Sequence record: NC_101835.1
DNA from: a phage
Length of the DNA stretch: 64,000 nucleotides
Reading direction: 5' to 3' (one strand)
The stretch's first letter is position 1, and every line of letters begins with the position of its first letter. The translations under genes were made by a program, and so were the position numbers. Shown here in pieces: positions 2,849 through 13,133 of the stretch. Under the pieces are notes generated by a model. It saw nothing but the letters and a program-made list of their open reading frames with translations, ran no database searches and was not told the DNA's origin.

Positions 2849-3247
2849 GTGAAAAATAAACTGTTTAAAGTTACAATGAAAATTCGCGGGGCTTGGAGCG
2901 TAAAGCAAGGGCGTATTCCAGAATTTGAGAAAGACTTCTACGTAGTCTCCACCTCGGAGGAGGCTGCATGCTGGCAGGCTGGCTATGCCTATGCAAGAAC
3001 CTGGTACGAAGGATACCAGACTGGGGGCTATGACGGAGAAATTATCAGCAAGGGTGTAGAAGAAATTAATGTGTTGACAAGTGAAAAAGTTTTTGTTATA
3101 GTGCATCCAGATTCCAGAGTGAAGCATTACTGGAATGCCAGAACAAAAACTTGGACACCGTTTGCAGATTCTGCTACGCCACTTTTAAACCAGAAAGCTC
3201 TTGACTCTGCCCCAAGTTATGGGGTTGTTGAAGAAAAGCTAAACTGA
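2849..3247 (+). CDS. hypothetical protein, paralog family 2 (copy A)
   Basis: GTG start inferred; C-terminal HPDSRVKHYWNARTKTWTP matches HPHSNIAYYWDVLNNEWTP of 5059-5454. Confidence 0.5.
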   Translation: MKNKLFKVTMKIRGAWSVKQGRIPEFEKDFYVVSTSEEAACWQAGYAYARTWYEGYQTGGYDGEIISKGVEEINVLTSEKVFVIVHPDSRVKHYWNARTKTWTPFADSATPLLNQKALDSAPSYGVVEEKLN

Positions 3248-3264
3248 AACAGTGAGGTGTCACC

Positions 3265-3555
3265 ATGATGGATTTAATTCTAAATATTGATAACGCAGGA
3301 GAGTTTAAAGACGATGGTGTAACAAGCATGGACAAACCCTGCTCTGCTAAGGTTGACTCAAAATGGACCTACAAGTTTGACGGAGAGATCTTCGCAAATG
3401 ATGAGAAGGTTGTAGATGCTGCAGCCATTTTAAACGCTCTAGGGTACGACCCTGTGAATTCTTTGATCAAGGATCCTGTTGAGTTTGCAGAGTATGTTCG
3501 AAAAATGGCAGATCTTGCTGTGGATATTTTAAAAACTATCGACAACAAGCTGTAA
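3265..3555 (+). CDS. hypothetical protein
   Basis: GTGAGGTG RBS before ATG. Confidence 0.5.
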   Translation: MMDLILNIDNAGEFKDDGVTSMDKPCSAKVDSKWTYKFDGEIFANDEKVVDAAAILNALGYDPVNSLIKDPVEFAEYVRKMADLAVDILKTIDNKL

Positions 3556-3561
3556 AAACTG

Positions 3562-3590
3562 TTGACACAACGCTTCAGATTTAGTATCAT
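3562..3590 (+). promoter_or_regulatory. sigma70-like promoter (TTGACA-N17-TATCAT)
   Basis: TTGACA at 3562-3567, 17-nt spacer, TATCAT at 3585-3590, about 50 nt upstream of hpf-like ATG. Confidence 0.45.
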
Positions 3591-3639
3591 TGTTTTCAAA
3601 GAGAGATAGTTATTCCCTCTTCCTTAAAAGGAACACGTT

Positions 3640-3960
3640 ATGCAAATTGAAATCACTGGCAACAATGTAGAAATCACAGAAGGTATGGTATCTTTTATTT
3701 CCCGCAAAATGTCCAAGCTGGAGCGTTTACATCCCTCTGTTAACTATGCACGTGTGAGTGTAAAAGTTGAAAATGATCACCAGGAAGTTATGGCGTTCAT
3801 TTTTGACAATTCTGGAAAAGAAGTTATTGCCAAGGCTAAAGGCAGTGATGCTTACGAGGCAACTGACCGTATGGTAGATGTTGCAGCACGTCAGCTGGCT
3901 AAATGCGGTGGAAAGAAAGGTAAGGGGAAAGGCAAAGTAAAGATTGACTTTGGAGAATGA
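3640..3960 (+). CDS. hpf: ribosome hibernation promoting factor / RaiA (S30AE) family homolog
   Basis: N-terminus MQIEITGNNVEITEGM.. recalls bacterial HPF MQLNITGNNVEITEAL..; KLE and ARQLAK segments; lysine-rich tail. Confidence 0.7.
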   Translation: MQIEITGNNVEITEGMVSFISRKMSKLERLHPSVNYARVSVKVENDHQEVMAFIFDNSGKEVIAKAKGSDAYEATDRMVDVAARQLAKCGGKKGKGKGKVKIDFGE

Positions 3961-4097
3961 GGTGCTACAATGGGTGTGATTAAGAAATTAGTCCCAAATG
4001 TAGAGATTGCATGCTTTGAAATTATGTTTGCAATCGCAGTTGTAGTTAATGTGTTAGGTTACGGCTATTAATATCAAATAATTGAGGAGACCTCTAA

Positions 4098-4726: not shown

Positions 4727-5059
4727 ATGAAAGTACGCTTTATTGGTGAAACAATTCCTGTGCATCTCCGGTCGCCTGAGGATTCTGCAGATCTTGCATC
4801 TCAAAAGGCGAGAGGTTATGATAAGAAAGTAACCTCAACCGATGTAGTGCTTGAGGCTACTAGTCTACCTGACCCTGCTGCATTCTTTAATCATTATGGG
4901 TACTATTTCAGCAATCTGATGAATATCGGTGAGCTTGTGTTTATTAGTGGTGGAGAAATTGTTAGCAAGCTTGGCGGCGATCCGGATATCTTTCATGAAA
5001 CCTGTCCTTTTGCATTTGTGGTAGGTTCAGATGTGGAAGTTATTGAGGAGGTGCGGTAA
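4727..5059 (+). CDS. small acidic protein, paralog family 1 (copy D)
   Basis: ATG at 4727 (track TTG 4700 less likely); C-terminal FVVGSDVEVIEE matches family 1. Confidence 0.5.
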   Translation: MKVRFIGETIPVHLRSPEDSADLASQKARGYDKKVTSTDVVLEATSLPDPAAFFNHYGYYFSNLMNIGELVFISGGEIVSKLGGDPDIFHETCPFAFVVGSDVEVIEEVR

Positions 5060-5454
5060 TGGTAAGCCTATACCGTGTTGAGTATAGCTCAGATACTGTA
5101 TACAACGTAAGAAGCAAAGATCGCAGCGACAGAGTGCAAGAAATGTATGTTCTTGCCGACAGTCCGTTATCTGCAGCGTTCAAGGCAGGGGCTCTTGCAT
5201 CTCGTTGGAAATTTGAAGGTGGATCTTTCTATGAAGAAACCCTTGAAGATTCTGTTGTTATTTCTTCTGTAGAGGTTTCAGATGACTACGAAGGGAAAAA
5301 GTTCGTAATGCGGCACCCACACAGCAACATTGCGTACTACTGGGATGTTCTGAACAACGAGTGGACCCCAGATCTTCAGAAGGCTACTGTGCTAACACCG
5401 TTTTTGGCAGATAAGTTCCCACCAGAAGGTAATTTATCCGCACTGTTTCAGTAA
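5059..5454 (+). CDS. hypothetical protein, paralog family 2 (copy B)
   Basis: GGAGGTG RBS; paralog of 2849-3247. Confidence 0.55.
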   Translation: MVSLYRVEYSSDTVYNVRSKDRSDRVQEMYVLADSPLSAAFKAGALASRWKFEGGSFYEETLEDSVVISSVEVSDDYEGKKFVMRHPHSNIAYYWDVLNNEWTPDLQKATVLTPFLADKFPPEGNLSALFQ

Positions 5455-9450: not shown

Positions 9451-9800
9451 CACACAATTAGCTGCCCGGCTAAAGTGCTGGAAGCACCTATAACACATCT
9501 TTCAACTAAATTTCCTACCACCACAATCACTTACCTCCCACACATGACTGTTTGCTTGTTTAGTGAGCAGTCATGCCTTGACATTCTTGCCTATCCTGAT
9601 AAAATTAAGTTCTTCTCTTTTCTTTTACCGAGTAATTCGGGTTTTCTGTTCTCTTCGGTTTGAAGGGGTATGGAGATACACCTGAGTGAACAGGGTGAAC
9701 AACCGAACCTTTGGCTATGGCATTAGCATGGCGAAGCGGACGGGTGACGAAAGAGGGGCCGGAGGACACCAGTCACTGCCATATGATATATGGGTGATAA

Positions 9801-10342
9801 CCTGAAGAGTCTGAATAAGTGTTTAAGTACCAGTCAGAGGAAAAGGTGAATGGTAGCCGAAGGGGGGAGGGGGGTTTCTTGTATCTTTAATTTGTATATT
9901 ATGTATACACTTGTAAACCAATCTAATCTGAATCTGTTTACCACACAAAGCGGATAGAGACAAATATTGCCTATTAAACTTGAATTATTTATAGAAAATA
10001 CCACAACACTACTTAAGTCTTTGATTTTACACACAAATCCTGCAGATATTCACCCTCCATATTTAACATACTTGTAACATATTCCATACTCTACCTGCCC
10101 GATCAATTCACCCAACTACATCCCCATATTTTCCCTGTCTGTACTACCCCTGCCCCGCCGGGAGTCCCATCATATCTGGCTTTCCAGCAAATATCACACC
10201 CACAAATATCATTGCCTGAAGAGGGTTTCATCCCATAATACCTGCCTTACCTGAAGAGCGCTTCATACACCACGTAAATTTTTTAATTGACCTCCCCCTG
10301 CCCCGCCGGAGAGGTTGGCTTTTCCCACACAGACCTGAAGAG
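9801..10342. repeat. dispersed direct repeats (CCTGAAGAG x4; CCCCTGCCCCGCCGG x2)
   Basis: CCTGAAGAG at 9801, 10215, 10250, 10334; CCCCTGCCCCGCCGG at 10148 and about 10295; GACCTACAGG x2 near 10390-10450. Confidence 0.5.
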
Positions 10343-10918
10343 TCAGCCAGAAATATCTGAATAGGCCCAATTCTACCACGATTTTGACCTGACCTACAGG
10401 GAGGCCCGAAGGGTCTAGCTTTCAGCTAGAGTCCTTGCAGGACCTACAGGAGCGCTGCCAGGCGGACGGAATGGGAATACTTCTCATTCTTATAACAATT
10501 CTCAAATATCGAGGCAGTGAGAGAAATTAATAGGCCAGGCCGTTCACACAGTGGCACAACATTTGCAACCTATTTTGTGTGGATGAATGAGAATACCTAT
10601 CATTATGAGAATAGTTATCATTACTGGCAATTTAACATAATACCCATTATGCGCACCACTGGCGATCCATACAGGGATTGATAACATGAGTTACTGTTTA
10701 CGCATATAACAATTATATTTATTACTATTTGTGTTGGGTATAGTTAGCAGCCGATAGATTAGATATTGACCTGCAGACTTCCAACTGTCTAGACGTCTAA
10801 ACGCCCACACAGCAAGGATTATACATACACAACTGAATGTAAACAGGGCCGCAAAAATGCTACCATACCAGATTGTAAATTTTTCATGCAGCACTTGACA
10901 AAGAGGAGGAAAACTTGT

Positions 10919-10960
10919 CTGACATACTGTGACATAATATGACATAATAGTGACACACTG
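10919..10960. repeat. tandem 10-11 bp iterons (TGACATA-type)
   Basis: tgacatactg / tgacataata / tgacataatag / tgacacactg in direct tandem. Confidence 0.5.
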
Positions 10961-11052
10961 GGCATACTCAACACTGGATACAATAACAATTGTTACTATT
11001 GCATGCCTCACTGTTCACGCATAGATGATAAGCCATGCCATTCGTTTGCATG

Positions 11053-11312
11053 ACAATAATTAACTTGTTTACAATCTTTCACTGGCTATGCCAGGTGACC
11101 TTTGGTCACCCCTTCGGGTGTTTCTATGACATAATATAAAAGCAGGGCAACTATTAGAAGATCTATAGTTGCCTTGCTTGTTATGTCATGATTAACTAAA
11201 TACAAGGCAACTATGATCTGATTAATAGATTGCAGACAAACTATCACGGGGGTGATGGTTACTGCTTTTATATTATGTCGCGACTCCGTCGCGCCATGCC
11301 ATTCGTTTGCAT
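11053..11312. repeat. inverted-repeat element bracketed by 19-bp direct repeats
   Basis: CCATGCCATTCGTTTGCAT at 11053-11071 and 11294-11312; inverted arms 11127-11146 and 11262-11279; palindrome 11147-11174; GGCAACTAT 9-mer x4 in alternating orientation. Confidence 0.5.
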
Positions 11313-11972
11313 AGTTGCCTTATTGTTACAGGTAAAATAATTACATTATTAATTATTTCTTATCTTTCTCTTAGTCATCTAATGATTCCAGTCAGTATAG
11401 TAATGTACAGTAAACATTAGACGACTAAATATTTCTCTGTTTATGATAACTCACCGTGACAATTTCGGACTGTTTACGAAAAATGTTGACACCTAAGCTG
11501 ATTTATGTTATGCAGTTTACACGAATAATTATTTTATGCAGGTATTGACTATTCCGTTATTCTGTGGTTGGAATAAATACTTTGCAGGCTATAGAATGGC
11601 GTGCGTACATGAATTCTGAGATCTGGCGGCTATAGTTATACTCGATTTTTCACGTAGAACACGCTTTTTAGTTTGTGTAAGTGTATGACTTATAAGAATT
11701 TTTACTTGTTGACAAGATATTGAAGATCTGCATCAGGTTAAAATTTGTGCAATAGCTGCATTACGTGCAATTTTGGAAGGGAAAACGGGTAAAAATAGCC
11801 CTGCTACCACACAATGAAAAGTTATGCAATAGTTATTTTACATGTATATTTGTACAGTGTGTGGGGTTGATGGCTCGTCAATTATTCCACTTGCCAGGTA
11901 GGGCCGTTTATGGTAGGAGAAGAGCAGACAAAAAGAAAGGGGCCTAAGCCCCTTGATAATTCAGTTAAAAAA

Positions 11973-12392
11973 TTATAATGATTCGTATATTTCAAAAATC
12001 CGATTTGCCAGGTCGTTACGGTAGCGGAATTTTTCCTCACGTTTGATCATAAGATCTTTATAGCCGTACTCTTTAAGCACTTCATTAACTTTATGGCGGC
12101 ATACTTTCATATTATCCTGCGCGTCACCAATAAATCTGTTGCTATGGTGCATGGCTTTAATTTCTTCTTCCAGGACCAGGGCAACTATGCGGACCGGATC
12201 AAGCTGATAGGCGGTAACATCCATGCGGCATTGTAAACGGCTTTTTACGTCTGCCACCGGATATACTGCAACCTCTTCCCCGTCAACATTGACAATAATT
12301 AGTTTACCATCGATTTCGAATCCTTTCGCCGCCGGACCGTGACAAAAAGCGTTATCAAAGCTATATGCCGGATTATTAGATTTAATGTTCAT
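11973..12392 (-). CDS. hypothetical protein
   Basis: AAGAGG RBS before ATG; last gene of the leftward array. Confidence 0.55.
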   Translation of the reverse strand: MNIKSNNPAYSFDNAFCHGPAAKGFEIDGKLIIVNVDGEEVAVYPVADVKSRLQCRMDVTAYQLDPVRIVALVLEEEIKAMHHSNRFIGDAQDNMKVCRHKVNEVLKEYGYKDLMIKREEKFRYRNDLANRIFEIYESL

Positions 12393-12536
12393 GGTGTTTT
12401 TACCTCTTAGTTAATTTTCTTACAACTTCCCTTCAAAAAAGAATATAGCAAAACTGCCGATCCCTGTCAACCAGGGATAGCATAATTTTTATGTGATCAA
12501 GGGGCTTTATTGCCCCTGACCATGTAACTTGTTGTA

Positions 12537-12800
12537 TTATTTGTTGCTCATCCAGTTTTCCCAAGCTGCCTGATAATCTGCCTCACTACGGCGGATCTCT
12601 TCTTGCTCTTCAAGGCGGATCTCTTCTTCCAGGTACCCCAAGATGTCAGCCTTTTTAGTCTGGCGCAGCATCCAGTCATCTTTTTTGCGAGTGAAGATCT
12701 TATAAGCTTTCTCGCAAACCTCTTTTTTGCTACCTTTCTGGACTTCAAGAACACGATAAGCCATATATTGAACTAATTTGAGCTGATCAAGACGTTTCAT
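12537..12800 (-). CDS. hypothetical protein
   Basis: AAGAGG RBS. Confidence 0.55.
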   Translation of the reverse strand: MKRLDQLKLVQYMAYRVLEVQKGSKKEVCEKAYKIFTRKKDDWMLRQTKKADILGYLEEEIRLEEQEEIRRSEADYQAAWENWMSNK

Positions 12801-12860
12801 GATGTTTACCTCTTTGTGCGGTTCTGATTAGTGGGCCTTTTGGCCCGTGTCATTATCTTA

Positions 12861-13133
12861 TTACTTATGGCGGCAGAATTCAAGCGTTTTTAATTGATAA
12901 TCTTCCTCAGCTTGGAGTACGACCGCCTCGATCATTTCGTTGGCATTGTTAAAGCCATAACCTTTAGCGAACTCATCCGCGCCACCTTCGTGATCATGTT
13001 CTGCGTTCATCGCTTCCACAAAATGGAATTCCAAATTGTTGAGGTAGGGGCTTGATGTTCCGTCCTCTTTTTCGATGAGATCCCAAATAGCATTAAAACG
13101 TGATTCGACTTCTTGATTAATCCAGCTTGACAT
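12861..13133 (-). CDS. hypothetical acidic protein
   Basis: GAGAGGAAAA RBS. Confidence 0.55.
   Translation of the reverse strand: MSSWINQEVESRFNAIWDLIEKEDGTSSPYLNNLEFHFVEAMNAEHDHEGGADEFAKGYGFNNANEMIEAVVLQAEEDYQLKTLEFCRHK

Follow-up and report, generated by a model that had tools for sequence, protein, structure and literature searches.

A predicted folded cis element kept just inside the left terminal repeat of Vequintavirinae genomes

Phage T7 reportedly carries arrays of short repeats (SRL and SRR) by its terminal repeat, and a hairpin intermediate is said to have been proposed for the duplication of that repeat. Signals for initiation on single-stranded DNA include the ssoA-type origins of rolling-circle plasmids, the complementary-strand origins of M13 and G4 and the primosome assembly sites of ColE1. 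The window analyzed here, a stretch of 64,000 nt of phage DNA (record NC_101835.1), contains repeats that, as judged by comparison of genomes, are the Vequintavirus form of an undescribed folded cis element, which is kept across all tested genera of the Vequintavirinae just inside the left direct terminal repeat (DTR).

As in the T7 group, the linear genome carries a short direct repeat at its termini, degenerate arrays of short repeats lie at the repeat boundary, a hairpin-forming inverted repeat is found near the terminal repeat, and the replication genes, as described for rV5, comprise those of a T7-like primase-helicase and of a polymerase of the PolA type (PMC3606486). Unlike the T7 signals, the Vequintavirus element lies on the left-end side of the concatemer junction, has a predicted branched fold of 150–260 nt instead of a simple palindrome, and has no sequence similarity to them. 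The single-strand initiation signals resemble it in their size of 150–250 nt, their dependence on orientation in one strand, their hairpins closed by a long stem, and their short conserved unpaired motifs, such as GCGAACGA in the genera other than Vequintavirus. However, those replicons have an obligatory single-stranded stage, whereas the present phage is a lytic one with a double-stranded genome of 137 kb; no motif is held in common, and priming by the phage element is a proposal. The element is like iteron origins (lambda ori, plasmid oriV) in having an inverted repeat, a box of 12–20 bp in four copies and, beside these, 40 bp that are 88% A+T, but the boxes of the phage alternate in orientation and form the strands of a hairpin, neither an initiator gene nor DnaA boxes are adjacent, the site is a convergence point of transcription, and the element is dispensable in one relative, FV3. 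The msr-msd RNA of retrons is similar in outline only, with a long-range inverted repeat closing one long hairpin and one or two short ones; the phage arms are much longer than the usual a1/a2, and there is no reverse transcriptase gene nearby, the flanking genes being without Pfam match.

A query of 1.5 kb around the element matched 119 phage records at 90–99% identity, all of them rV5-like Vequintavirus myophages of E. coli, and on this similarity the source is an rV5-like E. coli phage of the genus Vequintavirus. The label "Campylobacter phage" is carried by 18 of the 119 records, which are of the same virus type as the remainder. In the EdH4 record, 459 bp are repeated exactly at the two termini and map to 10461–10919 of the window; the bov10K2 record starts at the equivalent of 10461 and ends at that of 10460; and the CM1 record has a tandem duplication of 10461 to about 10971. 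By this mapping of ends, the window is therefore judged to be a permuted assembly. Because of the duplication in CM1, the DTR of the CM1-like lineage, which is that of the window itself, may be about 511 bp long with its right end at about 10971. DTR lengths of 458/459 bp have been described for Vequintavirus phages EdH4 and HdK5 (PMC6563267) and Gotham (PMC7471380). The element starts 209 bp past 10919, or about 160–210 bp when both DTR boundaries are counted, within a gene-free gap of about 2.5 kb on which two gene arms converge. In annotated relatives, the + strand genes stop to the left of the element (the last at about 9450); to its right, the − strand genes stop at 11973, and a strong terminator of the left-arm genes is found at 11937–11954. 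Both transcription and cumulative GC skew converge at the junction that holds the element. In the genome paper of rV5, the gap is drawn as a box marked 'non-coding', without a function (PMC3606486), and literature searches for the Vequintavirinae found no account of the element, of an origin or of a transcript map. Pfam domains are absent from the flanking proteins, whose PHROGs are of unknown function, no initiator gene is recognizable nearby, and no tRNA or tmRNA was found in the window by ARAGORN. The parts of the region are as follows.

10461 to 10919, no strand: direct terminal repeat (DTR), present once in the permuted window; left physical end at 10461, right at 10919.
10920 to 10971, + strand: array of 10-bp TGACAYNNTN repeats directly past the boundary of the 459-bp DTR; copy number and sequence vary among relatives.
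11002 to 11023, + strand: single CTGTTYAC unit; in relatives it is repeated up to about 12 times, at intervals of about 15 bp.
11032 to 11051, + strand: left 20-nt direct repeat GCCATGCCATTCGTTTGCAT; without a copy in V18, and with a C-to-A variant in isim, TP4 and FV3.
11076 to 11127, + strand: optional 52-nt hairpin module directly 5' of the 5' arm, ending in a C(UUCG)G hairpin and a U-run, terminator-like on the + strand.
11128 to 11145, + strand: 5' arm of the closing inverted repeat (helix P1), GACATAATATAAAAGCAG, complementary to the 3' arm at 18 of 18 positions.
11143 to 11154, + strand: box 1, CAGGGCAACTAT, a motif match to the 12-mer YARGGCAACTAT.
11146 to 11233, + strand: long imperfect hairpin within the arms, with its apex near 11180–11202 in minimum-energy folds.
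11165 to 11176, − strand: box 2, CAAGGCAACTAT, with box 1 (local palindrome) or box 3 (long hairpin) as its partner.
11203 to 11214, + strand: box 3, CAAGGCAACTAT, a motif match.
11239 to 11260, + strand: small hairpin AACTATCAC-GGGG-GTGATGGTT, with a T.G wobble on the + strand and the GTTAC motif after it.
11262 to 11279, + strand: 3' arm of the closing inverted repeat (helix P1), CTGCTTTTATATTATGTC, pairing with the 5' arm.
11280 to 11292, + strand: GC-rich flank GCGACTCCGTCGC, homologous to GCTCGCTACGCTCGC(GCCAC) 3' of the 3' arm in other genera.
11293 to 11312, + strand: right 20-nt direct repeat, identical in every aligned relative.
11311 to 11322, − strand: box 4, TAAGGCAACTAT, just beyond the arms, marking the right edge of the invariant core (about 11328).
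11325 to 11374, no strand: A+T-rich tract, the richest of the region (GC 0.20 over 50 nt; 88% A+T over 40 nt), beside box 4.

An earlier reading made from the sequence only had described an inverted-repeat element bracketed by 19-bp direct repeats. The repeat, extended by a G at its 5' end, is a 20-mer with exactly two copies in 64 kb (0.01 expected). The second copy is where it had been placed; the first had been put at 11053–11071, 20 nt too far to the right of its real position at 11033–11051, and the unit therefore starts at 11032, not at 11053. The inverted arms, reported at 11127–11146 and 11262–11279, are borne out as two fully complementary 18-mers with 116 nt between them, which lie 76 nt (left) and 13 nt (right) inside the direct repeats and do not abut them. 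The internal palindrome is also real, with arms of 15 nt at 11140–11154 and 11165–11179 that are 93% complementary across a 10-nt spacer and contain a perfect 9-nt core, GGCAACTAT/ATAGTTGCC. Five copies of the 9-mer GGCAACTAT are present against 0.48 expected, four of them at 11146(+), 11165(−), 11206(+) and 11311(−) and one farther away at 12180(+). The alternating orientation of the four had been correctly seen, but they are not confined to the stated span, the fourth running past 11312. What these copies have in common is the 12-mer YARGGCAACTAT, found in five exact copies of which four are clustered; box 4 and the right direct repeat share 2 nt, at the end of the latter. The TGACAYNNTN motif of the array at the DTR boundary also opens the 5' arm.

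The same arrangement is found in other genera. Klebsiella phage KPP-1 (Mydovirus) has a 514-bp terminal repeat at 116316–116829, and its packaging is of the T7 type according to PhageTerm (PMC9862379). In this genome the gene arms converge as in the window, and 309 bp inside the terminal repeat lies an inverted repeat whose perfectly complementary 21-nt arms enclose 164 nt. The KPP-1 region matched 68 records of Mydovirus, Seunavirus, Henunavirus and Avunavirus in blastn, and perfect arms of 17–21 nt enclosing 164–217 nt are present in 10 of 10 loci fetched from these four genera. The arm sequence depends on the lineage, being GACATAATATAAAAGCAG in the window, AGCGACACAATAACACGGGAG in KPP-1 and Mydo, GACACTATAACACGAGAG in PVP-SE1, GACACAATAACGCAGTAG in Av-05 and GCCACCTATAAAAGCAAGTAG in pEa_SNUABM_55, the last of which has TATAAAAGCA in common with the window, and both arms always change together between lineages. 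In an ungapped alignment of the arms, 96% of the cells of the closing stem are paired and 15 of 20 pairs show double-sided changes; none of 500 shuffles matches this, and slid registers pair at only 30–55%. The inner helices have compensatory double changes in 12 of 48 consensus pairs. Outside Vequintavirus, the interior consists of a small GC hairpin, a long hairpin with the conserved base GTGTTATCGTGGC/GCCACGATAAC, the invariant unpaired GCGAACGA and a second small hairpin, and the small hairpins show compensatory variants. The closing stem and the last hairpin recur in the window element, as do the GTTAC motif, which precedes the 3' arm in all genera compared, and a related GC-rich 3' flank (...TCGCGCCAY); the long hairpin of the window element, in contrast, is made of GGCAACTAT boxes, and the first small (5') hairpin is absent from it. 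Because the Vequintavirus interior differs, homology rests on position, arms, GTTAC motif and 3' flank. In both groups, one strand of the long hairpin is repeated downstream of the element, as box 4 in the window and as CCACGATnACGCGAACGA in the other genera, and extra upstream copies of the arm motif are found in PVP-SE1, AV124 and Av-05. It was also considered that the Vequintavirus interior is an inverted Mydovirus/Seunavirus interior, i.e. an invertible segment; this idea was rejected because it is still the + strand that has the wobble bias, the 3' hairpin, GTTAC, 3' arm and 3' flank follow one another in the same order in both, and a flipped orientation was seen in 0 of 26 genomes. Some records annotate ORFs inside the element; their strand and position differ between genera, and these short ORFs are probably spurious.

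The predicted fold is stable in comparison with shuffled sequences. For the unit from arm to arm, folding as DNA gives z = −12.8 for the window and −11.5 for KPP-1, and folding as RNA gives z = −7.8 to −8.5 for the window. The closing stem of 18–21 bp would enclose two to three hairpins, and in the window the GGCAACTAT boxes would be the strands of the long one. The stem (17–21 bp when all loci are taken) is strictly Watson–Crick, almost without G.U pairs, whereas the inner helices tolerate them, and a U.G pair is conserved at the base of the long hairpin in the GTGTTATCGTGGC/GCCACGATAAC stem. RNA folding favors the + strand over the − strand for every one of the 11 elements, by 6.7–14.3 kcal/mol and with 53 against 34 G.U pairs; since the 11 folds are phylogenetically related and represent perhaps five independent lineages, this strand bias is suggestive, not decisive, in pointing to a function as single-stranded + strand nucleic acid. 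Such a function is favored since strand asymmetry would be unexpected for a duplex protein site or for a symmetric cruciform. Rfam gave no match at E <= 1 in 9500–13000 of the window, and for six loci of other genera it gave only two matches, both at chance level and outside the element.

Within Vequintavirus, 16 relatives were aligned from the end of the DTR to 11420. A core at about 11121–11328 is about 95–100% identical per 20-nt bin among 15 of them, with about 98–100% for 11125–11328, and is the best-conserved block to the right of the DTR and of the gap. The stretch corresponding to 10920–11124 ranges from about 100 to more than 400 bp among relatives and is a patchwork of the optional 52-nt module and of short repeats of the TGACAYNNTN, AACAAGYTRACAAT and CTGTTYAC types, the last with one unit in the window and about twelve in typing phages 4 and 5, and the distance from the DTR to the element differs in turn. 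Polymorphisms found in several genomes (11158, 11198, 11229 and 11235) are all at unpaired positions of the predicted fold, and a 33-nt insertion of TP5 and phita32 sits at the apex of the long hairpin. The 52-nt module, with its terminator-like site at 11107–11120, is present or absent among relatives and has a 90% identical counterpart on E. coli plasmids of 13.7 kb. A satellite relationship, in which these plasmids would share packaging signals with the phage, was considered and is unsupported because the plasmids otherwise have nothing convincing in common with the window (beyond the module, one 24-mer only).

Two relatives differ at the direct repeats. V18 lacks the left repeat and keeps all else. 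FV3 lacks 11052–11312, that is one repeat copy and the intervening segment, the sole such junction among about 118 records; the repeat that it retains shows the C-to-A change by which the left copy of isim and TP4 is recognized, the sequence upstream resembles that of isim, FV3 is nested among relatives that have the element, and it was propagated as a viable phage. The FV3 junction thus looks like the trace of a deletion between the direct repeats in a lineage that is derived; it may otherwise be an artefact of cloning or assembly in a single sequence of 2012. Unless it is such an artefact, any role of the element is dispensable or redundant. From these alignments, the 20-nt direct repeats appear to be repeated motifs of the region and not insertion scars, and to have mediated the deletion of the element in FV3.

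The possibility that the segment is a miniature inverted-repeat transposable element (MITE) inserted with a target-site duplication, one of the two explanations offered by the sequence-only reading, can practically be dismissed. It draws on the 20-nt direct repeats that bracket a segment with inverted repeats, as in MITEs, and on the absence from one relative, FV3, of exactly one repeat copy and the segment between. However, the element is single-copy (118 places in 117 phage records), E. coli chromosomes hold no copy, the matches in E. coli being limited to the plasmid-borne 52-nt module, and the 20-mer is absent from 185,579 species genomes (GTDB); a search for additional copies in relatives or the host, as that reading had suggested, therefore gave one per phage genome and none in E. 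coli chromosomes. Unlike those of MITEs, the arms are not terminal, being distant from the direct repeats on both sides, a 20-nt duplication is atypically long for a target site, V18 keeps the element without the left repeat, and counterparts lie at the equal position in other genera. A relative lacking the segment precisely between the direct repeats does exist, as had been proposed to look for, but FV3 is alone in this, and its nesting among element-bearing relatives and retention of the left-copy variant are what is expected of a repeat-mediated deletion, not of an empty site. A host-borne repeat was likewise excluded by searches of phages, E. coli genomes, GTDB, IMG/VR and JGI metagenomes; in IMG/VR and the JGI metagenomes the 20-mer was found in Vequintavirus contigs only. 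The arm 18-mer gave 24 unrelated single matches in 596 Gb of species genomes, where about 17 are expected by chance, and the box pair GGCAACTAT-N(4–20)-ATAGTTGCC gave 26 contigs in IMG/VR, about the chance number, all of them unrelated hairpins except for two Vequintavirus contigs.

The remaining explanations differ in the form in which the element would act. A structured non-coding RNA, or a cis-acting RNA part of a longer transcript, from the + strand is possible, if on the doubtful side. In such an RNA the closing stem could be an RNase III processing stalk, and control could resemble that by lambda sib, with the element contiguous with right-arm transcripts only in concatemers. Compensatory changes in all helices, the G.U bias and stability of the + strand in every element compared and the confinement of insertions to hairpin apices are in line with this; moreover, the invariant extended −10-like TGACATAAT opens the Vequintavirus 5' arm, the 3' arm would give a U-rich run past the last hairpin, and rightward promoter-like sites are present near the DTR end. 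On the other hand, neither a promoter nor a terminator is conserved around the element across the other genera, a transcript from the −10 embedded in the arm would lack most of the 5' arm, although the entire arm covaries, many Vequintaviruses have the + strand C(UUCG)G terminator-like hairpin just upstream of the 5' arm, the closing stem is essentially without G.U pairs, unlike the inner helices, and Rfam gives no family. Double-stranded DNA is the active form in another explanation, an unlikely one, in which the element is a protein-binding site, either an iteron-type origin or an array recognized by the small subunit of terminase or by some other protein that binds the ends, with the YARGGCAACTAT boxes and the GACAYAATA arm motif as candidate binding sites and the A+T-rich tract as a candidate unwinding region. 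The four clustered boxes do lie beside the 40-mer of 88% A+T, which is 54 nt downstream of the 3' arm, and 9 of 11 relatives have comparable tracts past the element. The arm motif is seen again among the 10-bp repeats of the DTR boundary and in the extra upstream copies mentioned above, and a genome end is nearby; sequence-specific proteins may therefore well bind at the element. A duplex site leaves unexplained the compensatory changes of the small hairpins, the strand bias and the perfect complementarity kept by the variable inner halves of the arms, however, and the lack of a recognizable initiator gene nearby, with flanking genes devoid of Pfam matches, the variable spacing to the cut site, the state of FV3 and the convergence of transcription and GC skew at the junction all stand against it. 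The sequence-only reading had named an origin or cos-like site as its other explanation; the setting by the DTR, the boxes and the A+T-rich tract lend this some support, but the element is not the cut site itself, as the genome ends at 10461 and 10919 (or about 10971) do not coincide with an element starting at 11128, and the FV3 genome, a single, old sequence, is without 11052–11312, which does not agree with an indispensable cos or pac site. Very unlikely is a bidirectional transcription terminator or insulator between the gene arms that converge across the concatemer junction. The element does lie between converging units, its Vequintavirus arms are an A-tract and a T-tract around a structure, two GenBank records (Murica and Alma) annotate a terminator on the palindrome, and terminator-like matches occur on the + strand in Vequintavirus. 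Yet the left arm already has its own strong terminator, the arms in other genera are not U-rich and no terminator-like sites were found there, and a branched structure of 150–260 nt with conserved unpaired motifs and strand bias exceeds what termination needs.

The explanation tentatively favored, though it falls short of being probable, is a cis signal that acts as folded single-stranded DNA of the + strand in replication or in end processing. The position relative to the DTR, the conservation, the covariation of the stems, the + strand bias of the fold and the absence of mobility are directly supported; the active form would be DNA, and the process served would be priming or end regeneration. 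DNA is placed slightly ahead of RNA because of the lack of a conserved promoter or terminator, the terminator-like hairpin upstream on the + strand, the Watson–Crick closing stem and the lack of an Rfam family, a preference that is indirect since covariation with G.U bias is the classic signature of RNA. Forks that pass from the concatemer junction into the left arm would have the + strand as their lagging-strand template, and this strand would also be displaced when the terminal repeat is copied, if this occurs by nick-primed synthesis from the left boundary. Once folded, it might serve as a strand-specific priming or loading signal, by which the left end would be replicated and regenerated. 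Such a priming signal would agree with where the element lies, with its tolerance of variable spacing, with its fixed orientation and with its being dispensable in FV3, and the variable distance between DTR and element suits it better than a component of the cut site. The convergence of gene orientation and GC skew at the junction argues against a classical bidirectional origin. A more specific and rather improbable version is that the + strand displaced at the concatemer junction folds and recruits the phage primase-helicase or polymerase, thereby completing the left end of the next genome, or that an RNA counterpart senses the configuration of the genome.

The Vequintavirinae, which include rV5, PVP-SE1, phi92-like phages and the Klebsiella phages of Mydovirus, are widely used candidates for therapy and biocontrol, and their end block of about 2.5 kb, their origin and their packaging signals had never been given a function before. 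The folded element turns this anonymous gap into a defined target that is subfamily-wide, covarying and strand-biased, at a fixed place by the DTR. For engineering, the region is a natural candidate for cis signals needed in genome rebooting or in the packaging of synthetic payloads, and not free space for insertions. If the element is indeed a signal for end regeneration or genome sensing, it would provide a handle on how ends are duplicated or protected in phages with short terminal repeats outside the T7 group.

The sequences repeated in the element recur beyond it. In addition to the four box copies clustered at 11143-11322, a fifth exact 12-mer box is located 1 kb away, within the first left-arm ORF (11973-12392, minus strand); chance alone would give about 0.03 such matches in the window. 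In PVP-SE1 and AV124, phages of other Vequintavirinae genera, a third copy of the outer arm motif, GCGACACWATAACAC, precedes the 5' arm by about 94 nt; a further such phage, Av-05, has an extra copy inside its counterpart element. This is paralleled in the window by copies of TGACATAATA upstream of the element. These additional copies suggest that the outer arm doubles as a sequence-specific site.

Motifs in and around the element (positions in the window unless a fetched comparison sequence, L0xx, is named)
12177-12188, plus strand: fifth exact 12-mer box, CAGGGCAACTAT
L070 1080-1094; L077 1009-1024; L076 1147-1162: extra outer arm motif copies, in PVP-SE1, AV124 and Av-05
11486-11509; L069 3591-3614; equivalents in L070-L074, L077 and L078: TTGACA-N12-TATGYT, rightward

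The 9-mer is also found in a viral contig, IMGVR_UViG_3300037721_000035 (L027), which is unrelated to the window and shows no homology to it. Six GGCAACTAT/ATAGTTGCC boxes, together with variants of GGTTGCC and an uninterrupted A+T run, are clustered at 4787-5176 in an intergenic region following the end of an ORF that appears primase-like by eye. This cluster looks like a textbook iteron origin, in which the same 9-mer would occur by coincidence.

Further features to the left of the element and around the terminal repeat (window positions)
11076-11127: optional 52-nt hairpin/terminator module, directly left of the 5' arm
10389-10460: duplicated GACCTACAGG motif, immediately leftward of the physical left end, bracketing a 40-bp segment (10401-10440)
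9578-9605, plus strand: sigma-70-like promoter, TTGACA-16-TAAAAT with TG
9628-9640: terminator-like hairpin

The optional module is 90% identical to a non-coding plasmid stretch (NZ_CP035869.1, 10646-10697; L017/L018), and its match is found in five E. coli records, comprising circular 'plasmids' of ~13.3-13.7 kb and one 39.6-kb plasmid. The single plasmid looked into, pE275a_13 (13.7 kb), looks like a mini-phage or satellite, because it encodes major capsid, tape measure and baseplate proteins. Apart from the module, it resembles the window in a single 24-mer only (23/24 identical), at window 10487-10510, within the terminal repeat.

The terminal-repeat region is tandemly duplicated in Shigella phage CM1 (L002, MK962749.1), where 2942-4007 corresponds to window 10461-~10971 twice, overrunning the 459-bp boundary of the related phages EdH4 and Gotham by ~52 bp. 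This lineage has either a longer repeat (~511 bp) or an assembly in which both repeat copies were retained with a shifted junction. Small palindromes lie in the 10401-10440 segment, which just five of the relatives reaching this region cover. Eighteen GenBank records (MG0656xx), titled 'Campylobacter phage' with C. jejuni as the stated host and carrying no annotation, match E. coli Vequintaviruses at 90-97% identity over the region around the element, and are probably mislabelled or contaminant assemblies.

With respect to the terminal repeat, a second non-coding stretch (9541-9860) occupies the right-end side; it is 98-100% identical among relatives. It includes the region's best sigma-70-like promoter and the terminator-like hairpin. 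Possibly the stretch is a small RNA or leader; an Rfam search of it gave no match. Downstream of the element, TTGACA-N12-TATGYT occurs at a distance of ~200 nt in the window and of 40-70 nt in Mydovirus and Seunavirus, where it sits within a conserved A+T-rich stretch, TTTATTTGACAAGATTTTATTTTTATGCTCAAAAA. Its N12 spacer is shorter than a standard sigma-70 promoter requires, and the motif may represent a phage-specific promoter class.
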